57,585 nucleotides of DNA from Escherichia phage vB_EcoS_SP8, in the sequence record MT682705.1; one strand, written 5' to 3'. A program made the translations under genes and the position numbers. The notes beneath the pieces were generated by a model that was given only the letters and a program-made list of their open reading frames with translations, was not told the DNA's origin and did not search any database. Below, piece after piece: positions 27,044 to 51,209 of the stretch; position 1 is the stretch's first letter; each line of letters starts with the position of its first letter.

Positions 27044-27066
27044 CTTCTAAACCATTATACAATCCG

Positions 27067-27102
27067 CGCCCTGTTGAAGTCCAACGGGGCGTTTTTGTTT
27101 TT
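27067..27102 (+). terminator. rho-independent terminator ending the early operon
   Basis: 10-bp stem CGCCCTGTTG / CAACGGGGCG (one G-U pair), 5-nt loop, followed by TTTTTGTTTTTG. Confidence 0.7.
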
Positions 27103-27596
27103 GTACCCGCACCACCTCCCGCGCTACCCTGCTGACCACATATTCCTCACCCATAACTCCACCATTCGCGCTCTAAGAACCTGAATCCCTCTTCCGTACA
27201 TTACCATTGACTCCAATTCAGTCGCCTTATACGCCCTTACAGTGATCCACTCCCTGCTTCCCTGTACGCGATTTTGCGGCATTTTCGCCCCTCACCGCCA
27301 CCCTTACACCGATCCAACCAGTTAATCGCGCTACGCGCCCCGTTTTCGCGGCTATTTTCGCTTTATGGGCGACCCGTTACCCCGATCTCAGCTACCCAAC
27401 CTCACCGAAAAGCCGGCTTTGCCCGAAAAATCCGGCATTTATACCATAAAATAGAATCGTTTTCGGGCTACAAAATTTCAAACTCGCAAATCGCTTTCAC
27501 TTCGAGAGTTACCTCAGCAAAAATCGCTTGCAATCCACTTTTCTTTTGTGTTAGACGCGCGGACGCGCATTATGCGCAGGCGCCAGGCTCTGCCCT

Positions 27597-28018
27597 GTCT
27601 ACTGACGAGCCAGATTTATAAAGTTAATAAATTCGTATATTTTCGCGTAATGTACGAAATGAAAGGGGGTAAGTGCATGAAAAATAAGGTAAAAAATGTG
27701 TGTATGTGTGTATTTATATAAATTTTATAAAGATTTTTTGTTTTTTTAGTTGTCTACTGACGACCCTACGAGACCCCTTTATAAAATTTATAAATTCCCA
27801 CGTTCCCCCCAACTCTCGAAATTTTCCCTTATTTTTCATACACTTCGCTTCGCCGTTTCGTATGTTGCTGGATCTTTATAAATTGTGCATTTTTTCACCG
27901 ATCTTTATAAATTTGCAATTTCTCACCTTCAGACTGCTGTAATTTTTGCAAAAGCAAAAACTTTGCATATACAAACACCGCAAAATGTCACAATTGCAAA
28001 TAGCAAAAACTTCGCATA
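27597..28018. repeat. cluster of direct repeats in a 1-kb non-coding region
   Basis: GTCTACTGACGA at about 27597 and 27752; GATCTTTATAAATT at about 27871 and 27900; AGCAAAAACTT(T/C)GCATA at about 27953 and 28002; TTTATAAA recurring at least 5 times. Confidence 0.6.
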
Positions 28019-28079
28019 AATTAAAACTTGGCAACTGAATTTCAAAATTAATCGATTTTATTTAGTCAAGGGTGAGGTT

Positions 28080-28700
28080 ATGCGCAATCGTAATATTGAA
28101 ATAACGCACGCACACGTACAGGAAATGTTCGGTTATGACGAACAAATGTATGCCAAAGCGGTAGCCATATTAGAACAGCACAAAGACAGCCTAAGTAATG
28201 TGGTCAAAGCGTGGAAGGAGGCTGGCCTCGTGTTGCGGCCGAATGCGGTCAAGAAGTTAGATGACGGGCGGATGTATATGTGCTGGTCGGCTCCGATGTT
28301 GGGTATGATGTTTACTGTCGACATCTACTTCGGGTACTGGTTGTTAGAGGTGGATTGTGTGATTCCGCTCGACAAGTATATGCACAGTAAAGGATTCAAC
28401 AGTTGCTTTGACGTGTGTCCTGATACGGAAGGCAACGCTGTTATGATCCTGGGCTTTAAGTGGGTCGGCGATAAGTGTGAAATTAGGCCGTTGCGATACC
28501 CGCGTGGTAAAGCCCGTCGTGCATATATTGAAGATGGTGTTGTTGGCTGGTGTGATGTACAGAAGCGTCGGATGGGTGCTAACCACATTGCGCATATCAA
28601 GGAGTGCCTCGTTAGACTTCAGGCGAATAATAGTGGTAATGTGCAGTTACAGCAAGAACTGCAAGAGCTCATTGAATACATTGATCAGTTTGGAGCGTAA
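28080..28700 (+). CDS. hypothetical protein
   Basis: 206-aa ORF, first gene after the repeat-rich non-coding region; RBS GGGTGAGG. Confidence 0.45.
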   Translation: MRNRNIEITHAHVQEMFGYDEQMYAKAVAILEQHKDSLSNVVKAWKEAGLVLRPNAVKKLDDGRMYMCWSAPMLGMMFTVDIYFGYWLLEVDCVIPLDKYMHSKGFNSCFDVCPDTEGNAVMILGFKWVGDKCEIRPLRYPRGKARRAYIEDGVVGWCDVQKRRMGANHIAHIKECLVRLQANNSGNVQLQQELQELIEYIDQFGA

Positions 28701-29312: not shown

Positions 29313-29662
29313 TGCAAACAGTAAGCAATTCGCCTTTATATAAAGCAAAGGTGCGACTTCTTGAACAAGCTAAGCAGGTAGACCCGAATACAAATCCGGA
29401 TTTACTTGACGCTATTGTCAATGCGATGGAAGTTATGGACTTTGCGGACTTTCTGTTCCATCGCGTGTCGCACGTCGCCAAGGCTTTAGGTTACACGGGT
29501 AATGTCGAAGATTTTCAAAGTGCGTTCGAATACCTTATGCGTAACCGCGAGAAGGCGCTGGTGGTGGATCGTCAATATCAGCTTATCAAAAATAAATCGA
29601 AGGTCGAACGTCTACTTCGTGAGACTTTGGAAATAGTAACGGGAGGTGAAGATGCAAATTAA
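29312..29662 (+). CDS. hypothetical protein
   Basis: start at ATG (MQTVSN) preceded by AAGGAGAAG. Confidence 0.4.
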   Translation: MQTVSNSPLYKAKVRLLEQAKQVDPNTNPDLLDAIVNAMEVMDFADFLFHRVSHVAKALGYTGNVEDFQSAFEYLMRNREKALVVDRQYQLIKNKSKVERLLRETLEIVTGGEDAN

Positions 29663-29780
29663 TCTTACTCAGAAGGCTGTGCGATACTTCGGCGAAGTGT
29701 TCTTTGTTCCAGTGTGGGCGAAATACCTTGCGGTTGACGAGGACGGAACTTTAACTGCATTCGAGAATGAGCCTCAGTAG
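29652..29780 (+). CDS. small ORF ending at an in-frame TAG that is followed by 86 further sense codons
   Basis: ATG preceded by GGGAGGTGA; 42 codons then TAG; the downstream ORF (to 30038) is in the same frame. Confidence 0.3.
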   Translation: MQINLTQKAVRYFGEVFFVPVWAKYLAVDEDGTLTAFENEPQ

Positions 29781-30030
29781 TGCGAATGTATTGATGGCGA
29801 TGGTTTTTGGGTATTGACCGAGCCAGGTATTGAAATCGATATCTGTTATAACGTGGACCTGGAAGGTATGGATTTCAAAGAAACGTGTGTTAATATTGAC
29901 TATAAAGTAAGCGACAACCCACACGACCACACTGAATGGTTCGAACGTATGCGCAAAGACGATTATAAGCGAACATTAAACGGACAATGGACTCCAGCAT
30001 GTGGTCAACTGAATAAAGAAGGTGGCAAAG

Positions 30031-30246
30031 ATGAGTAAAGAACTCCAAACTGCGTTAACTCAAGAAGAAATTGATATTCTTCAAACCGACATCCTTACTT
30101 TGTGCAAGCGTATTAAAGACGCTTATGAAGAAGGTTTATTTGACAAGCAATTGAACCAGGAAGTTCAGACTGACGAACAACTGTGGAACGCGTCTAGTGC
30201 GAAATGTATCTATGACGCATTGATGAAACAAGCTATGGAGCAATAA
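30031..30246 (+). CDS. hypothetical protein
   Basis: start at ATG (MSKELQ) preceded by GAAGGTGG. Confidence 0.35.
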   Translation: MSKELQTALTQEEIDILQTDILTLCKRIKDAYEEGLFDKQLNQEVQTDEQLWNASSAKCIYDALMKQAMEQ

Positions 30247-30248
30247 TC

Positions 30249-30518
30249 ATGATTACAGCACAAGAAGCTCGTACAAATAGTGAAAACTTGGATACCAGTG
30301 CATATCTTGATGATTTGGATAAATGGATTACTAAAGCATCTCTAGATGGCAGGGATCATATTAAATTATTTAAAAAGCCATATAGTGAAATCGGTAGTCC
30401 TAATGCACGTCCTGTAATGAGAAAGGTGACTGAACAACTGGTATCATTTGGATATACAATCTCATATACGCAACCATTAAGCCAGCTGGATACTGAAAGT
30501 GTAGAAATTTTATGGTAA
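30249..30518 (+). CDS. hypothetical protein, low-GC island gene 1
   Basis: 89-aa ORF; visibly AT-rich relative to flanking genes. Confidence 0.4.
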   Translation: MITAQEARTNSENLDTSAYLDDLDKWITKASLDGRDHIKLFKKPYSEIGSPNARPVMRKVTEQLVSFGYTISYTQPLSQLDTESVEILW

Positions 30519-30533
30519 TTGTGAAGGTAATAT

Positions 30534-30947
30534 ATGCTAGTCAAACTCGTTGTCGATGTTAAATTTGAAGAACCAATTAAAGGTCAGAATATTCATACTT
30601 TGGAAATTGGTTCTTTTGATGTAAGTAAATTTTTTAATGGTAGGAGTAAATTCTTTAAAGATAAATCCTTAGATTTACCATGTGATATTAACCACAAATT
30701 ACCATCTCGATCTTCTGCGAAAGTCCGTGGAAATGGGCGTATCCTGTCTTTTGCTGATTCTATGAAAGATTGGGAAGATTTAAAATTTATTGTTAGCGCA
30801 CGTATATTAAAGACCGAATATAAAGTAGCTTCTGATAATTATATGAAACACTTTTATCCGAGAATAATTTTTAAAGATCGTATAAACATCTCTAAAGAAG
30901 AGATAATGTGTAAACCTATCACCTGTCGTTGGGTCATAGTACCGTAA
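30534..30947 (+). CDS. hypothetical protein, low-GC island gene 2
   Basis: 137-aa ORF, AT-rich; followed by hairpin GCAGGGG...CCCCTGC. Confidence 0.4.
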   Translation: MLVKLVVDVKFEEPIKGQNIHTLEIGSFDVSKFFNGRSKFFKDKSLDLPCDINHKLPSRSSAKVRGNGRILSFADSMKDWEDLKFIVSARILKTEYKVASDNYMKHFYPRIIFKDRINISKEEIMCKPITCRWVIVP

Positions 30948-31021
30948 TTTGCAGGGGGTTAGACCCCTGCCGATCCATCAGTATATACTAGGTGTGTCCT
31001 AATGGATCGTAGGAGAATAAC

Positions 31022-31258
31022 ATGTCAGATTTAATTACCGTTCACTATTATGGTTCAGATGTAGAAGTACCAAAAGACACAAGATATATTGCAACAGATT
31101 CTGATGGTTGCGTGTACGCATTTAATAATGACAAGCCCGTCTTTAATGAAAAAGTCGGTACATGGTGTGTTTACACGAATTCTTTTAAGCTGGTAGATGT
31201 CAACTTTAATGTTGTACCATCACGTTCGTTATTTGAAATTAATCCCGCTACGTTTTAA
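31022..31258 (+). CDS. hypothetical protein, low-GC island gene 3
   Basis: 78-aa ORF, AT-rich; RBS AGGAGAA. Confidence 0.4.
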   Translation: MSDLITVHYYGSDVEVPKDTRYIATDSDGCVYAFNNDKPVFNEKVGTWCVYTNSFKLVDVNFNVVPSRSLFEINPATF

Positions 31259-31267
31259 GGTAATGAC

Positions 31268-33817
31268 ATGCTGGAACTTTTTCCTCAAGAAATTAAACAA
31301 TACGAACAGTGGGCTGTCTGCGGTTTCCATCCAGGTACATCATCAGAAAAACAACCTTATGTATGGGACGATGATTTAGGGGATATGGTCCCACTTCGTA
31401 AAGACGGTAATGATAAGAAACCGTCTAACCTGCATTTACTTATGTCTTTTGAAGATGCTGAACGCTGCATTCGTTATTATAACGAGATTGGCCATAACTT
31501 GCGTTTAGGTTTCTATTTACTTCCAAGTGACCCGTTCTGTTGTATTGACATGGACATTAAAGATACCATGTCTGAAATGGAAAAGAAAGTTGCTGGTGAG
31601 CGATATAAGAAGATTGTTGAATCGTTCCATAGCTATACGGAAATTTCCAGAAGCGGTGATGGGTTGCACACATGGATTTATTCTATCCCTCAAGCTGGTA
31701 AGCGCCGTGATGGTGTGGAAGTGTATTCACAATATCGTTTTATTATCTGTACAGGCGATCACTGGGATGTTACTCCGCGCACTGTGTCTGGTGCTCCAGG
31801 CAGTGAAAGCGAAGGGTATATTGCTAATCTCATTCATCAGCTTATGTCTGAGATGAGTGAGATTAATGAGTCTGATGGCTTCCAAATGCTGGAACTTACT
31901 GAAGAAGATTTTAGTAACGACCCATATGCAATGGAAGATCAGGATGTCTATATTCAGTTGTGTGAACAAGAAAACGGGACATTGTTTAAGCAGCTATGGG
32001 AAGGTCGTTGGAGAGCTGAAGAAGTTGATACTTCTATCGGTGAACGCTGTTTCCCTTCTCAGTCTGAAGCAGAATTTGCATTAATTGACTTTCTTTGCTT
32101 TAAGAGCAAGTATAATTTCCAGGTAAGACGCCTATTCATGTATTCACCAATGAGTAGTCGTTACGATGATTCCCGTCGTCTGCCTGGTGAAAAAATCAAA
32201 CGTCCGTATCACCTGGATAGAATGATTCGTAACTACCGCTATGATGCCCATGTTAAATCTATGGGACTTATGCAGATAGTTCAGAATAACGTTAATGCAG
32301 CTATAGAGCGCACGGAGAAACTGCGTCAAGCAACTACACCAGAACGCCCACCTGAAGAAGTGTTGACCACAGATGGCAATTACACTGAAGAGCAGGCAGA
32401 CGGTTTGGCTTGGCCTCCGGGCTTTATGGGCGAGGTTGCGCGTAACATGTATAAAGCGAGCTTGTTGCCTATTAAAGACATTAGTATTCTGTCTGCTCTT
32501 GCTTTATTTAGTGGTATGTGCGGTAAGGCGTGGAACACAGTCACACGAAGTGGTCTGAATAACTACTTTGTATTAATTGCACGTTCTGGTATTGGTAAAG
32601 AAGCGTTTCGCTCTAACATTGAAACTATTCTTTCTCAAGTATCCAATTATGGCGGCCAGGACGGTCAGCAGATATTTGGTATTGAACGTGTTTTGGATAC
32701 AAGTACCTATGCGTCTGATGCTGCATTGCGCAAGGATGTCATAATGGATACGTCCGTTATGTCTTGTGGCTCATCCATCAACTATAAGACTGAAGTCGGT
32801 GCATTTTTCCGTAACGGTAAGATGGAAGTTGGTAAAGCTAAAGACATTATGGATGAAATGCTTTCCCTTTATGACAAGGGGCATTTCTATGCTTTCTCTG
32901 GTGGTTCAAAACACTCTAGTAAAGATAATACGACTGCTGGAGGTAAGGTTAAGGCGTATAGTTTTGCAGGTGAAACAACACCAGATGAATTTTATGGCAA
33001 CGTAGACGACCGTATGATGTCGAGTGGCTTCATGTCCCGCATTATCGCATGGGAATGTACAGCTAACCGCCCATTGATGAATAAGAGTATGCTCCTGGAA
33101 TATCCAGAAGCAATTCTGCGCACTATTGGAGCTATCTATAAACAAGCTGTGCGCATTATGTCAGGGACTGCCCCATGCTATGTTGAAATGGAAGCAGAGG
33201 TACACGAAGCATTTGATAATCTTGATAATGTTGTTGCGAAGTTCCTGAACAGCGGCAATGATGGTGAGCAGGTACAAGACGAAGTAATTCGTCAGATGTA
33301 CACAAGGAAGGCGTTGAAGGTATTGCGTATCGCTTCTCTTCTTGCTGTAGCGGATAACAGTGAGCGTCCTGTTGTTACTATGGAACATTATCGTTGGGCT
33401 GAGTCATTTATTGATCAGGGTAACGAGCGTTTCTTAGAGAAGCGTAATAGTGGGCAGATTGGGTCTACAGATAGTACCAGTCGTGAGAAAATAATGCTCA
33501 ACTCTATCAAGAAGTTCTTGGATGGGGAAGTTAAAGCTGGTGTGTATAAACGGTTCCCAATGTTTAAGGGCGCGTTTATTGTCACACGGAGTGACTTATG
33601 TACTTATTGTAGACAATTTAAAGCGTTCAAGCAGACAAGAAATGACAACATCTTGCAGGTCATAGACAACACAATTTATGGTTTGATGTCTATGGAAGTT
33701 CTTACTGAAATGAGGCCAATGGACTTTTCAAGTTTCTTCGGTGCAGAGTTTACACCACCGAGGATGAAGTGTTATTTGGTAGACATTGAGAGAATGAACG
33801 AAGTTATTAAGTTATAA
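31268..33817 (+). CDS. DNA primase-polymerase (AEP-like) fused to a helicase-like C-terminal domain
   Basis: 849-aa ORF; N-terminal CCIDMDIKD (DxD) and SGDGLHTW motifs typical of archaeo-eukaryotic primase folds; Walker A-like SGIGKE in the C-terminal half. Confidence 0.55.
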   Translation: MLELFPQEIKQYEQWAVCGFHPGTSSEKQPYVWDDDLGDMVPLRKDGNDKKPSNLHLLMSFEDAERCIRYYNEIGHNLRLGFYLLPSDPFCCIDMDIKDTMSEMEKKVAGERYKKIVESFHSYTEISRSGDGLHTWIYSIPQAGKRRDGVEVYSQYRFIICTGDHWDVTPRTVSGAPGSESEGYIANLIHQLMSEMSEINESDGFQMLELTEEDFSNDPYAMEDQDVYIQLCEQENGTLFKQLWEGRWRAEEVDTSIGERCFPSQSEAEFALIDFLCFKSKYNFQVRRLFMYSPMSSRYDDSRRLPGEKIKRPYHLDRMIRNYRYDAHVKSMGLMQIVQNNVNAAIERTEKLRQATTPERPPEEVLTTDGNYTEEQADGLAWPPGFMGEVARNMYKASLLPIKDISILSALALFSGMCGKAWNTVTRSGLNNYFVLIARSGIGKEAFRSNIETILSQVSNYGGQDGQQIFGIERVLDTSTYASDAALRKDVIMDTSVMSCGSSINYKTEVGAFFRNGKMEVGKAKDIMDEMLSLYDKGHFYAFSGGSKHSSKDNTTAGGKVKAYSFAGETTPDEFYGNVDDRMMSSGFMSRIIAWECTANRPLMNKSMLLEYPEAILRTIGAIYKQAVRIMSGTAPCYVEMEAEVHEAFDNLDNVVAKFLNSGNDGEQVQDEVIRQMYTRKALKVLRIASLLAVADNSERPVVTMEHYRWAESFIDQGNERFLEKRNSGQIGSTDSTSREKIMLNSIKKFLDGEVKAGVYKRFPMFKGAFIVTRSDLCTYCRQFKAFKQTRNDNILQVIDNTIYGLMSMEVLTEMRPMDFSSFFGAEFTPPRMKCYLVDIERMNEVIKL

Positions 33818-33845
33818 AAAATGGGCGCTATATGCGCCAATTATA

Positions 33846-34070
33846 TTATTCGTGCAACTCTAAGAACCCACATACAACGTATTCAAACATCTCGTCGTAA
33901 TCTGGTGTTGAAAAATCTCCAACGTGATACTCATCTTTCTCAAATGTGACCACAGTTGAGGATCCCATATATTCATATTTTATTATCGAACTACCTTGCT
34001 CAAATAAGAATTCCTCTGATTTGTTCATTGCAGTTCTGATGTTTCTTTTTATAAGATCTTGGTGAGTCAT
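33846..34070 (-). CDS. hypothetical protein on the opposite strand within the plus-strand block
   Basis: 74-aa AT-rich ORF with RBS GGAGGAACAC before ATG; flanked downstream by hairpin GGCGC...GCGCC. Confidence 0.4.
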   Translation of the reverse strand: MTHQDLIKRNIRTAMNKSEEFLFEQGSSIIKYEYMGSSTVVTFEKDEYHVGDFSTPDYDEMFEYVVCGFLELHE

Positions 34071-34698: not shown

Positions 34699-34920
34699 AT
34701 GGGTAAATTAAAAACGACAATTTATACTAAAAAATCTCTTGAAGGATTCATGCAACATCTGGCTGAGTTGGGTCTGAGTGTGTATGGGCCTTGTATGAAG
34801 GATGAGGTCGAGTACCCTTCCTTGATGGACTACAATGTCGACGATATTATCAATCGACGTAAATGTATCCAGAATGATAGCTTATTTTTTGTGGATGATA
34901 TCACATTAATTGATGATTAG
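34699..34920 (+). CDS. hypothetical protein
   Basis: 73-aa ORF with RBS AAGGAG. Confidence 0.35.
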   Translation: MGKLKTTIYTKKSLEGFMQHLAELGLSVYGPCMKDEVEYPSLMDYNVDDIINRRKCIQNDSLFFVDDITLIDD

Positions 34921-34937
34921 GACACTGGAGAAATAAT

Positions 34938-35171
34938 ATGTGTAATAAATGTGAAGAAATGATGAAAATGATGACAATGATAGACGAAAGAGTATTAGTG
35001 TCTCTGGCAATCATTGAAGCAGCCCAGAATTCATTCATGGAAGCCTATCGCTTATGTAAACCAGAATCCTCGTTAGATGAAATTGAGAAAGCCTGGCAGA
35101 AATCAAACACATGTAGTGTATTAGCTCATCTTATGACGAGCGAAGAACAACCTAAAGAGAATCTACACTAA
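34938..35171 (+). CDS. hypothetical protein
   Basis: 77-aa ORF with RBS GGAGAA. Confidence 0.35.
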   Translation: MCNKCEEMMKMMTMIDERVLVSLAIIEAAQNSFMEAYRLCKPESSLDEIEKAWQKSNTCSVLAHLMTSEEQPKENLH

Positions 35172-35927: not shown

Positions 35928-36404
35928 ATGGATTGGAATCACTATTTTCAATATAGATGCGGAAAACTTTATTGGAAAATCAATAAAGGACGTTCTAAGG
36001 TAGGTGATGAAGCTGGATATATTCATAAATCACATGGATATATTTGTATCACACTTAATCGTAAGGAGTATTATGCCCACCGCATCATTTGGGAAATGCA
36101 CTATGGGCCAATACCAGAAGGAATGGAAATCGATCATATCTGGCATGATCGTCAAGATAACCGCATTGAGAATTTACGGTTAGTGAGTAAATCAGGTAAT
36201 GCTAGAAATCAGTCTAAGTTTAAGAATAATAGTAGTGGCGTGACTGGTGTCAGTTTTGACAAATCAGTTGGTAAATGGATAGTTCAAATTGGAGTAAATG
36301 GAATTAATAAAACTCTTGGATGTTTCGAAGAGTTTAATAAAGCTGTTGAAATTCGTCGTAAAGCAGAGATTAAATACGGTTATCATGTAAATCATGGTAA
36401 GTAA
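35928..36404 (+). CDS. HNH homing endonuclease with AP2-like DNA-binding domain
   Basis: EIDHIWHDRQDNRIENLRLVSKSGNARN (HNH) followed by SGVTGVSF...KWIVQIGVNG...FEEFNKAVEIRRKAEIKYGY (AP2-like); AT-rich. Confidence 0.6.
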   Translation: MDWNHYFQYRCGKLYWKINKGRSKVGDEAGYIHKSHGYICITLNRKEYYAHRIIWEMHYGPIPEGMEIDHIWHDRQDNRIENLRLVSKSGNARNQSKFKNNSSGVTGVSFDKSVGKWIVQIGVNGINKTLGCFEEFNKAVEIRRKAEIKYGYHVNHGK

Positions 36405-50720: not shown

Positions 50721-51209
50721 ATGCACATTATATCTAGAAAACAAGCTATAGAGAAGGGGCTAAAACGTTATTATACTGGTAAACCTTGTAAGAGAGGTCA
50801 TATAGCAGAAAGACATGTCACTGGTGGATGTGTAGTTTGTGCTAACGAAGACCAGATTAAATATTATCAACAAAATCCTGAAAAATACAGGAGAGCTAAC
50901 AGAGATTATTTTCAAAGACCAGATGTTAAAGAGAGAAATAGAATTAGACAATCTCAATTCTATGAAGATAATAAACATTTATGTAGAAGTATATCGTCCC
51001 ATTGTAGAGCACAACGTTTATTAAGAGTTCCAGCATGGTCAGAGAAAGAAGAGATTAAACGATTCTACGAAAATTGCCCAGATGGGTATGAAGTGGATCA
51101 TATAATACCTCTACTTGGCGAGTTGGTAAGTGGACTTCATGTAATGTGTAATTTACAGTATTTACCAAAGCACGAGAACAGATCGAAAGGAAATAAGTTC
51201 GATGTATAG
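50721..51209 (+). CDS. HNH endonuclease inserted in the modification cluster
   Basis: Cys-rich N-terminus (CKRGH...CVVC) and EVDHIIPL...H...N HNH core; AT-rich; overlaps dpdA start. Confidence 0.55.
   Translation: MHIISRKQAIEKGLKRYYTGKPCKRGHIAERHVTGGCVVCANEDQIKYYQQNPEKYRRANRDYFQRPDVKERNRIRQSQFYEDNKHLCRSISSHCRAQRLLRVPAWSEKEEIKRFYENCPDGYEVDHIIPLLGELVSGLHVMCNLQYLPKHENRSKGNKFDV

Follow-up and report, generated by a model that had tools for sequence, protein, structure and literature searches.

The 57,585-nt stretch of Escherichia phage vB_EcoS_SP8 DNA analyzed here (sequence record MT682705.1), referred to below as the window, contains at positions 30249-31258 three consecutive small open reading frames (ORFs): orf89 (30249-30518, 89 aa), orf137 (30534-30947, 137 aa), and orf78 (31022-31258, 78 aa), all of them on the + strand and exactly at the positions given in the initial annotation. 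Do these AT-rich genes form a cassette of accessory functions which the phage has recently acquired, as was then proposed, or an old part of the genome? The window is that of a Nonagvirus (9g-like, Queuovirinae), the 4-kb neighborhood of the locus being 92-96% identical to Nonagvirus genomes. The reading we favor, with about even confidence, is that the block is an ancestral genus-wide early segment consisting of three unrelated small genes located directly upstream of the primase-helicase gene.

An old genus-wide block of three unrelated genes

The base composition of the locus is indeed atypical. Its GC content amounts to 0.345, as against a mean of 0.433 in the window (standard deviation (SD) 0.026, 1010-bp segments), which places it 3.4 SD below this mean. 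Equally low values occur in 0.1% of the 1010-bp segments, and since every one of these overlaps the locus, it constitutes the GC minimum of the 57.6-kb window. The deficit is that of the third codon positions: the GC content at these positions (GC3) is 0.222 in orf89, 0.239 in orf137, and 0.278 in orf78, which rank 1st, 3rd, and 6th from the lowest among 79 ORFs (median 0.396), whereas the small genes upstream in the same operon show GC3 values of 0.40-0.54.

As regards the features of a recently acquired island or moron, an atypical base composition is therefore present, while neither patchy presence nor an empty site was found among 12 GenBank Nonagvirus genomes and 9 IMG/VR contigs, orf89 alone being missing, in phage 9g. 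The block is kept with the same gene order in all 12 of the GenBank genomes examined (9g is the only one without a full orf89), and its GC content in these genomes is 0.347-0.375, as compared with 0.42-0.44 in the flanks. The 9 IMG/VR contigs also carry the genes, and the IMG/VR scans yielded Nonagvirus contigs only. Nothing similar was detected in 5,426 complete E. coli genomes, so that a host or prophage origin of the block finds no support. The nucleotide identity between the window and its relatives amounts to 75-98% in the case of orf89 (deleted in 9g), 80-95% in that of orf137, and 97-99.6% in that of orf78. Purifying selection acts on all three, with ratios between nonsynonymous and synonymous changes (dN/dS) of 0.23, 0.16, and 0.12, respectively, in the window plus the 12 GenBank genomes (13 genomes, the set also used for the synonymous divergence, pS, given below), and they are therefore genuine coding genes. 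The block is an old genus-wide segment of the Nonagvirus early/replication operon and not a recent insertion, and orf89, orf137, and orf78 are three unrelated genes in three evolutionary regimes rather than one unit.

A recent, horizontally acquired three-gene cassette with anti-defense, exclusion, or toxin functions might still be argued from the lowest GC and GC3 values of the window, from the lack of any family assignment, and from the fact that orf89 demonstrably moves between genera (see below). It is nevertheless very improbable and largely refuted by the presence/absence data, since the block is fixed with a matching composition in every Nonagvirus examined, orf78 is paralogous to a resident gene, orthologues of orf89 occur throughout the subfamily, the three genes do not vary together as one block, and their products show neither transmembrane segments nor PADLOC matches. 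Of the two parts of the refuting condition given in the initial annotation, the conservation of the block in the relatives with matching composition was thus observed, while no homology between its genes and those of the core replication machinery was found.

The Pfam, NCBIfam, PADLOC, and PDB sequence searches carried out with the three proteins gave no informative match, and the PHROG matches were all of unknown function. The PDB sequence and profile searches yielded nothing, or chance matches at E > 0.3; the anti-defense structures (Acb1/2/4, Tad1/2, Ocr, and others) were included in the form of solved PDB structures, without a dedicated anti-defense library of hidden Markov models. No homology to any known anti-defense, toxin, exclusion, or replication family was therefore found in these searches, and the maximum 19-residue Kyte-Doolittle hydropathy of at most 0.62 indicates that transmembrane segments or signal peptides, as expected of superinfection-exclusion, holin-like, or membrane toxin proteins, are absent in all three proteins. 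The suggested toxin or superinfection-exclusion functions thus find no support in membrane topology or in PADLOC, Pfam, or PDB matches. The anti-defense function is conjectural: only the evolutionary behavior of the genes and one grey-zone fold resemblance speak for it, and none of the proteins could be assigned to a known anti-defense family. The statement that the genes have no recognizable motif holds good for Pfam, NCBIfam, PADLOC, and PDB, but not for the invariant Cys/His quartet of orf137 and the phrog_1972 motif of orf78 described below.

The long rightward operon holding the block was predicted in the 9g paper to be an early or early/middle region (PMC4276943), which agrees with the early-region placement originally given. 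The genes are tightly packed: only 2 nt separate g74 from orf89, 15 nt orf89 from orf137, and 9 nt orf78 from the primase gene, the 74-nt spacer between orf137 and orf78 being the sole loose junction. This tight spacing indicates that the genes are co-transcribed.

The variable genes orf89 and orf137

The acidic orf89 product (pI 5.0) is a small alpha/beta protein of the Queuovirinae-wide family phrog_5321, of which the window carries the Nonagvirus-type allele. Full-length orthologues 30-37% identical to it were found by tblastn throughout Seuratvirus and related Queuovirinae, which means that the family is old. In phage 9g, the gene is cut to a 24-codon in-frame remnant, and since this phage is viable, orf89 is dispensable. 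The Seurat orthologue is compositionally normal (GC 0.43, GC3 0.37), whereas the Nonagvirus-type allele is low in GC wherever it resides, even inside a Seuratvirus. In the latter, SA126VB, the resident orf89 has been replaced by a Nonagvirus-type allele (87% nucleotide identity to the window, GC 0.34): the Seurat-like flanks stop about 60 nt into orf89 and return at the stop codon. Judging from these borders, this is a gene-sized, single-gene allelic replacement across genera, and the locus illustrates clearly how phage genera exchange the allele of one gene. The low GC content goes with these particular alleles and is a heritable property of their synonymous sites. The picture which might account for these features is that of a dispensable modulator, the alleles of which would pass from one Queuovirinae genus to another through homologous recombination at the ends of the gene. 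The widened, Queuovirinae-wide profile of orf89 gave no family or PDB match, and its structural matches were heterogeneous; the list of these matches served as a specificity control for the fold comparison on orf137.

In SA126VB (L002), the gene following the orf89 homologue (4338-4730) encodes a domain of the YAcAr/SLOG family (Pfam E 9e-19), a family often tied to nucleotide-signal biology. The protein in question, SA126VB_83, was compared with orf137 and found to be unrelated. In metagenome/Logan contigs, -1 frameshifts in A5 runs cut short orf89 (P0044 and P0045; up to 11 contigs) and orf78 (P0047; 4 contigs). These may be real loss-of-function variants or homopolymer sequencing errors, and they therefore weigh only weakly in favor of dispensability.

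The basic orf137 product (pI 9.5) is a genus-restricted orphan. It was detected by tblastn in 17 Nonagvirus records and nowhere else; a word-seeded search among 5.8 billion proteins yielded 15 clusters, all at least 71% identical and from Nonagvirus only, and an exhaustive HMMER profile search among 1.84 billion representatives yielded its own cluster only. Its variability is unevenly distributed: residues 1-28 are invariant at the protein level (pS 0.22, the corresponding nonsynonymous value, pN, being 0.005), and so is an N-terminal beta-hairpin, whereas the loop formed by residues 29-46 is hypervariable (pN/pS 0.60, with a 5-residue indel), and the segment alleles are shuffled among the genomes in a modular fashion. 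Since the pS values of orf137 (0.36-0.49) exceed that of the adjacent primase gene (0.23), its allele classes predate the divergence of the core genome.

Taken by their allele patterns, the evolution of orf89 and orf137 resembles that of accessory host-interaction genes, and the products of the two would be non-essential or host-facing accessory proteins. The accessory nature originally attributed to the whole block would therefore apply to these two genes, which bear the hallmarks of an arms race, but not to orf78, which is core-like and the most conserved gene of the neighborhood. Lytic phages contain small early genes that are accessory or hypervariable, and the block resembles these in being made up of closely packed ORFs near the beginning of the early operon; the deletion of one gene in one isolate, the cross-genus replacement of a single gene, and the ancient allele classes are further points of likeness. 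The block differs from them in that it is fixed as a whole and that orf78 is among the most conserved sequences of the region.

These data also bear on the possibility that the three ORFs are simply ordinary small early genes, encoding generic host-takeover or replication helpers, in which the low GC3 results from AT-biased mutation and weak codon selection. This account, which we regard as conceivable although rather unlikely, is in line with the stability of the low GC content over the genus, with the lack of family matches, and with the low GC content of further small genes downstream (33846-34070 and 34699-35171; GC 0.35-0.37). It does not explain why the upstream small genes of the operon have a normal GC3, why the Nonagvirus allele of orf89 has a low GC content even in a Seuratvirus and the Seurat orthologue a normal one, or why the allele classes of orf137 are older than the core genome.

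What orf137 might do was approached via its conserved residues and its predicted fold. Residues C50, H54, C126, and C131 are invariant, H54 being the only invariant histidine and lying in a loop, and the basic residues of the strands (K63/R65/R69/R110/R116) are conserved; the Cys/His quartet suggests a zinc site. The medium-confidence model shows a weak, grey-zone but coherent resemblance to the 2H phosphoesterases (the Acb1/LigT/VP3 fold), the 2H-related names listed for it being AKAP18, CPDase, MHV ns2, the penguinpox cyclic GMP-AMP (cGAMP) phosphodiesterase (PDE), and Usb1. In line with the favored reading, orf137 could be a basic, possibly zinc-stabilized protein having a conserved beta-sheet core like the 2H fold of viral immune antagonists. 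Because both catalytic histidine motifs have been lost, it would most likely act not by hydrolysis but by binding, either to a host protein or to a ligand that carries a phosphate, be it a nucleotide signal or an RNA end, and its variable loop and helices might track a diversifying partner.

Several points weigh against this reading. Both H-x-[ST]-x motifs are absent: their equivalents in orf137 are QNIHTLEIG, in which the His is directly followed by the Thr, and FYPRIIFKDR, in which Arg and Ile stand at the positions of His and Thr, as compared with KIHSTI and TPHITL in T4 Acb1 (57B) and NLHLTL and HPHITL in E. coli ThpR. H21 is not invariant, being replaced by Tyr in one homologue (P0015), and the second motif position is occupied by PRII. 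The alignment of the orf137 profile with those of T4 Acb1 and E. coli ThpR using hhalign gave no signal (probability < 1%), no 2H Pfam family was matched at E <= 1, the PDB profile search gave 0 matches, and Foldseek searches against BFVD yielded nothing significant. The zinc site is a putative one, deduced from the invariant residues of the alignment. Genes of the orf78 family (see below) occur in unrelated phages among early/nucleotide-metabolism genes, and not consistently beside primases. No paper was found tying orf89, orf137, or orf78 to a phenotype or a demonstrated function. Lastly, the orf137 alleles of phages Bas19 and Bas20 are similar, and yet the two phages differ in their sensitivity to AbiA, which restricts Bas20 and spares Bas19 (PMC11077055), and to CBASS, the anti-phage system based on signaling by cyclic oligonucleotides (PMC11077055; 10.1101/2023.05.21.541620), so that these genes do not obviously explain the published phenotypes.

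Since the motifs are absent and there is no support at the sequence or profile level, orf137 was not filed as a 2H enzyme. Acb1 is a 2H-family anti-CBASS nuclease (PMC9117128; PMC11722364), and the fold resemblance could be taken to mean that orf137 is an active Acb1/LigT-like 2H phosphodiesterase which destroys cyclic (oligo)nucleotides serving as immune signals or mends the ends of RNA; with IHTLEI and YPRIIF in place of the two motifs, a non-invariant H21, H/Y variation at H106, and no profile similarity, we consider this extremely improbable. A sub-threshold match between orf137 and TmcA_N (18.3 bits, cut-off 22.7) was treated as noise. Going by the model, orf137 is at most a degenerate and probably non-catalytic derivative of the 2H fold. 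It differs from the members of the 2H superfamily (phage Acb1, bacterial LigT/ThpR, the C-terminal domain of rotavirus VP3, coronavirus ns2, and the poxvirus cGAMP PDE) not only in lacking both catalytic motifs but also in its shorter length (137 aa), the absence of a helix between strands 1 and 2 in the model, the lack of sequence or profile similarity, and its Cys/His quartet, which is not a 2H feature.

The mode of action proposed for orf137 is that of the nucleotide-signal sponges (Tad1, Tad2, Acb2, and Acb4), small early phage proteins which bind without catalysis. The sponge families are phage-restricted and fast-diversifying (PMC11722364), as is orf137; unlike them, it has no sequence match to any solved sponge structure, and the known sponge folds are not of the 2H type. 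A more specific version, which is highly speculative, is that a 2H fold having lost its catalytic activity has turned into a high-affinity binder, cross-braced by a Cys3His zinc site and serving as a sponge or decoy, the target being an immune signal of nucleotide type or an RNA end with a 2',3'-cyclic phosphate, with an arms race driving the hypervariability of the loop and helices. If this were so, it would be the first enzyme-to-sponge transition among phage anti-signaling proteins, and orf137 would be a candidate explanation of the broad resistance to CBASS that was reported, without an explanation, for Bas20, which is a Nonagvirus. More generally, if orf137 or orf89 is a true immune antagonist, the counter-defense repertoire of phages would gain a new orphan family, and the case of orf137 might also show that the fold of a degrading enzyme can give rise to a non-catalytic binder. 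Bas19 and Bas20, two phages of the BASEL collection, are already in standard use as probes of the defense systems of E. coli. The locus is a defined set of testable conserved hypothetical genes rather than a new system, and its interest on the whole is moderate.

The intergenic hairpins, orf78, and the frozen synonymous sites

The GC hairpin reported to follow the second ORF is real, and a second hairpin abuts it. Hairpin 1 (30951-30970, + strand) has a GC-rich stem of 7-8 bp and a loop of 4-6 nt, GCAGGGG-GTTAGA-CCCCTGC, and is the sole match to that pattern in the window; hairpin 2 (30971-31009, + strand) is a 39-nt imperfect stem-loop ending 1 nt before the Shine-Dalgarno sequence AGGAG of orf78 (31011-31015). 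The predicted stability of the two together is -31.8 kcal/mol (z = -4.3), and none of 200 shuffled sequences was as stable. Hairpin 1 is kept in all the relatives, with changes only in the loop and the closing pair, and 2 of the 39 columns of hairpin 2 vary among the 13 genomes (G/T at 30991 and a 1-nt deletion at 30997 in Bas20). The sequence downstream of the stem-loop, CGATCCATCAG, contains no T run, and since neither hairpin is followed by a U-tract, they are not canonical intrinsic terminators. The hairpins were not called by the terminator scan, they are left unmarked in the ARNOLD-based terminator annotation of phage HdSG1, and the region has no match in Rfam. The motif TAGACC-18-TATACT present in the hairpin spacer is not claimed to be a promoter: the density of matches in the promoter scan equals that obtained with shuffled sequences.

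Hairpin 2 may serve in RNA processing, in RNA stability, or in the control of translation. By analogy, the two hairpins would constitute a point of mRNA processing or stabilization in the style of the T7 RNase III sites, parting the variable genes from the orf78-primase unit. T7 RNase III hairpins are likewise intergenic, conserved, stable, devoid of a U-tract, and located between early genes just upstream of a ribosome binding site. Those described here have shorter stems and form two separate hairpins and not one bipartite stem.

Directly downstream of the block lies the 849-aa AEP-type primase/DUF3987 helicase gene (31268-33817, + strand), the product of which matches the Pfam families DUF3987 at 4e-7 and AEP-TOTE at 1.5e-5 and is annotated as a DNA primase/helicase in the relatives. 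The Shine-Dalgarno sequence of this gene, as read from the sequence, overlaps the orf78 stop codon, and the acidic orf78 product might be a small conserved factor, the translation of which just precedes that of the primase and is probably coupled to it. With a pS of 0.039, as against 0.234 in the primase gene, the nearly invariant orf78 is the most conserved sequence of the neighborhood. It aligns with residues 28-77, the N-terminal half, of phrog_1972 (E 7.3e-12), with which it shares the motif Y[IL]A[TV]D.DG....F.N.P, and is paralogous to the N-terminal domain encoded by a 128-aa gene located 1.3 kb upstream (35% identity, E 6e-7). Domains of the phrog_1972 type were found in 89 phage records belonging to several families; they are always annotated as hypothetical and often present in several copies per genome. 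They occur in the Nonagvirus 128-aa gene, Seuratvirus, Klebsiella T1-like phages, phiEco32-like phages, and jumbo phages (the identity to BRET_64 is 35%), and orf78 differs from them in being a stand-alone short version with a C-terminal tail of its own. The phrog_1972 family has no known function or structure, and the PDB searches gave nothing. Guilt by association between orf78 and primases was looked for in other phages and not found.

Three further observations concern these genes. The homologue of the 128-aa gene in the window (29652-30038, + strand) contains an in-frame TGA at 29778-29780 where the relatives, in all of which the gene is intact, have TGG (Trp43). The gene may be a pseudogene, the TGA may result from a sequencing error, or it may be a leaky UGA which tRNA-Trp is able to read. 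In phage 9g, orf78 is present (97% identical) and was left unannotated. The primase-helicase is annotated in the form of 2-4 coding sequences in SE1 (L005 4019-6570), HdK1 (L012 4002-6568, with gaps), and 9g (L001 3769-6317), which points to frameshifts/insertions or annotation artefacts.

The conservation of orf78 extends to its synonymous sites and beyond its ends. In a zone of about 420 bp (30971-31390, without strand), comprising hairpin 2, the ribosome binding site, orf78, and the first 40 or so primase codons, synonymous variation is reduced 5- to 10-fold: the synonymous-codon differences are 0.01-0.04, as compared with 0.1-0.3 in the flanks, and the variants are nearly all singletons. 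RNA structure was rejected as the cause, the zone being less structured than shuffled sequences (z +1.0 to +1.6), as was an overlapping ORF, and no iterons or significant repeats were found. The frozen zone is possibly due to a DNA-level element (an origin or a control region) or to a gene-specific recombinational sweep.

In phages, plasmids, and phage-inducible chromosomal islands (PICIs), the origin of replication is often located within or next to the initiator gene. The AT-richness and the frozen sites might accordingly reflect a replication origin or unwinding region serving the adjacent primase-helicase and reaching across orf78 into the 5' end of the primase gene, since the zone is AT-rich, RNA-unstructured (z > +1), and poor in synonymous variation, and adjoins an initiator gene. 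The absence of iterons and significant repeats tells against this idea, as does the fact that the most AT-rich part of the locus (30446-30845) corresponds to orf89/orf137, which, being the most variable DNA, is not sequence-constrained; moreover, a gene-specific recombinational sweep would give the same singleton-only pattern. We consider an origin unlikely. The frozen stretch beside the primase gene could mark the Nonagvirus replication origin or a control region.

Other structured and low-GC features of the window

Apart from the intergenic hairpins, the most structured RNA segment of the 2.7 kb scanned is located inside the primase gene (31775-31999; z -3.65 and -2.5). Between the primase-helicase gene and a convergent 74-aa gene, the perfect GC palindrome GGCGC-TATAT-GCGCC (33824-33838) was scored as a terminator on both strands. 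In HdSG1 and HdK1, the terminator annotated by ARNOLD directly behind the primase gene may correspond to this palindrome.

The other low-GC features of the window include an isolated HNH_3 homing endonuclease gene (35928-36404, + strand; GC3 0.25, Pfam E 1e-23), a truly mobile low-GC gene of a kind to which the block does not belong, and an ORF of 162 aa (50721-51209, + strand) with a GC content of 0.348 and the second lowest GC3 in the window (0.233), which has no Pfam match. Upstream, a strong intrinsic terminator (27066-27092, an 11-bp stem followed by a T-run) precedes an AT-rich stretch of about 460 bp in the 27400-28080 region (GC about 0.33), the only ORF of which is unannotated (27700-27942, 80 aa). 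This stretch, which ends at the first gene of the block of genes containing the locus, is probably an internal promoter or regulatory region.
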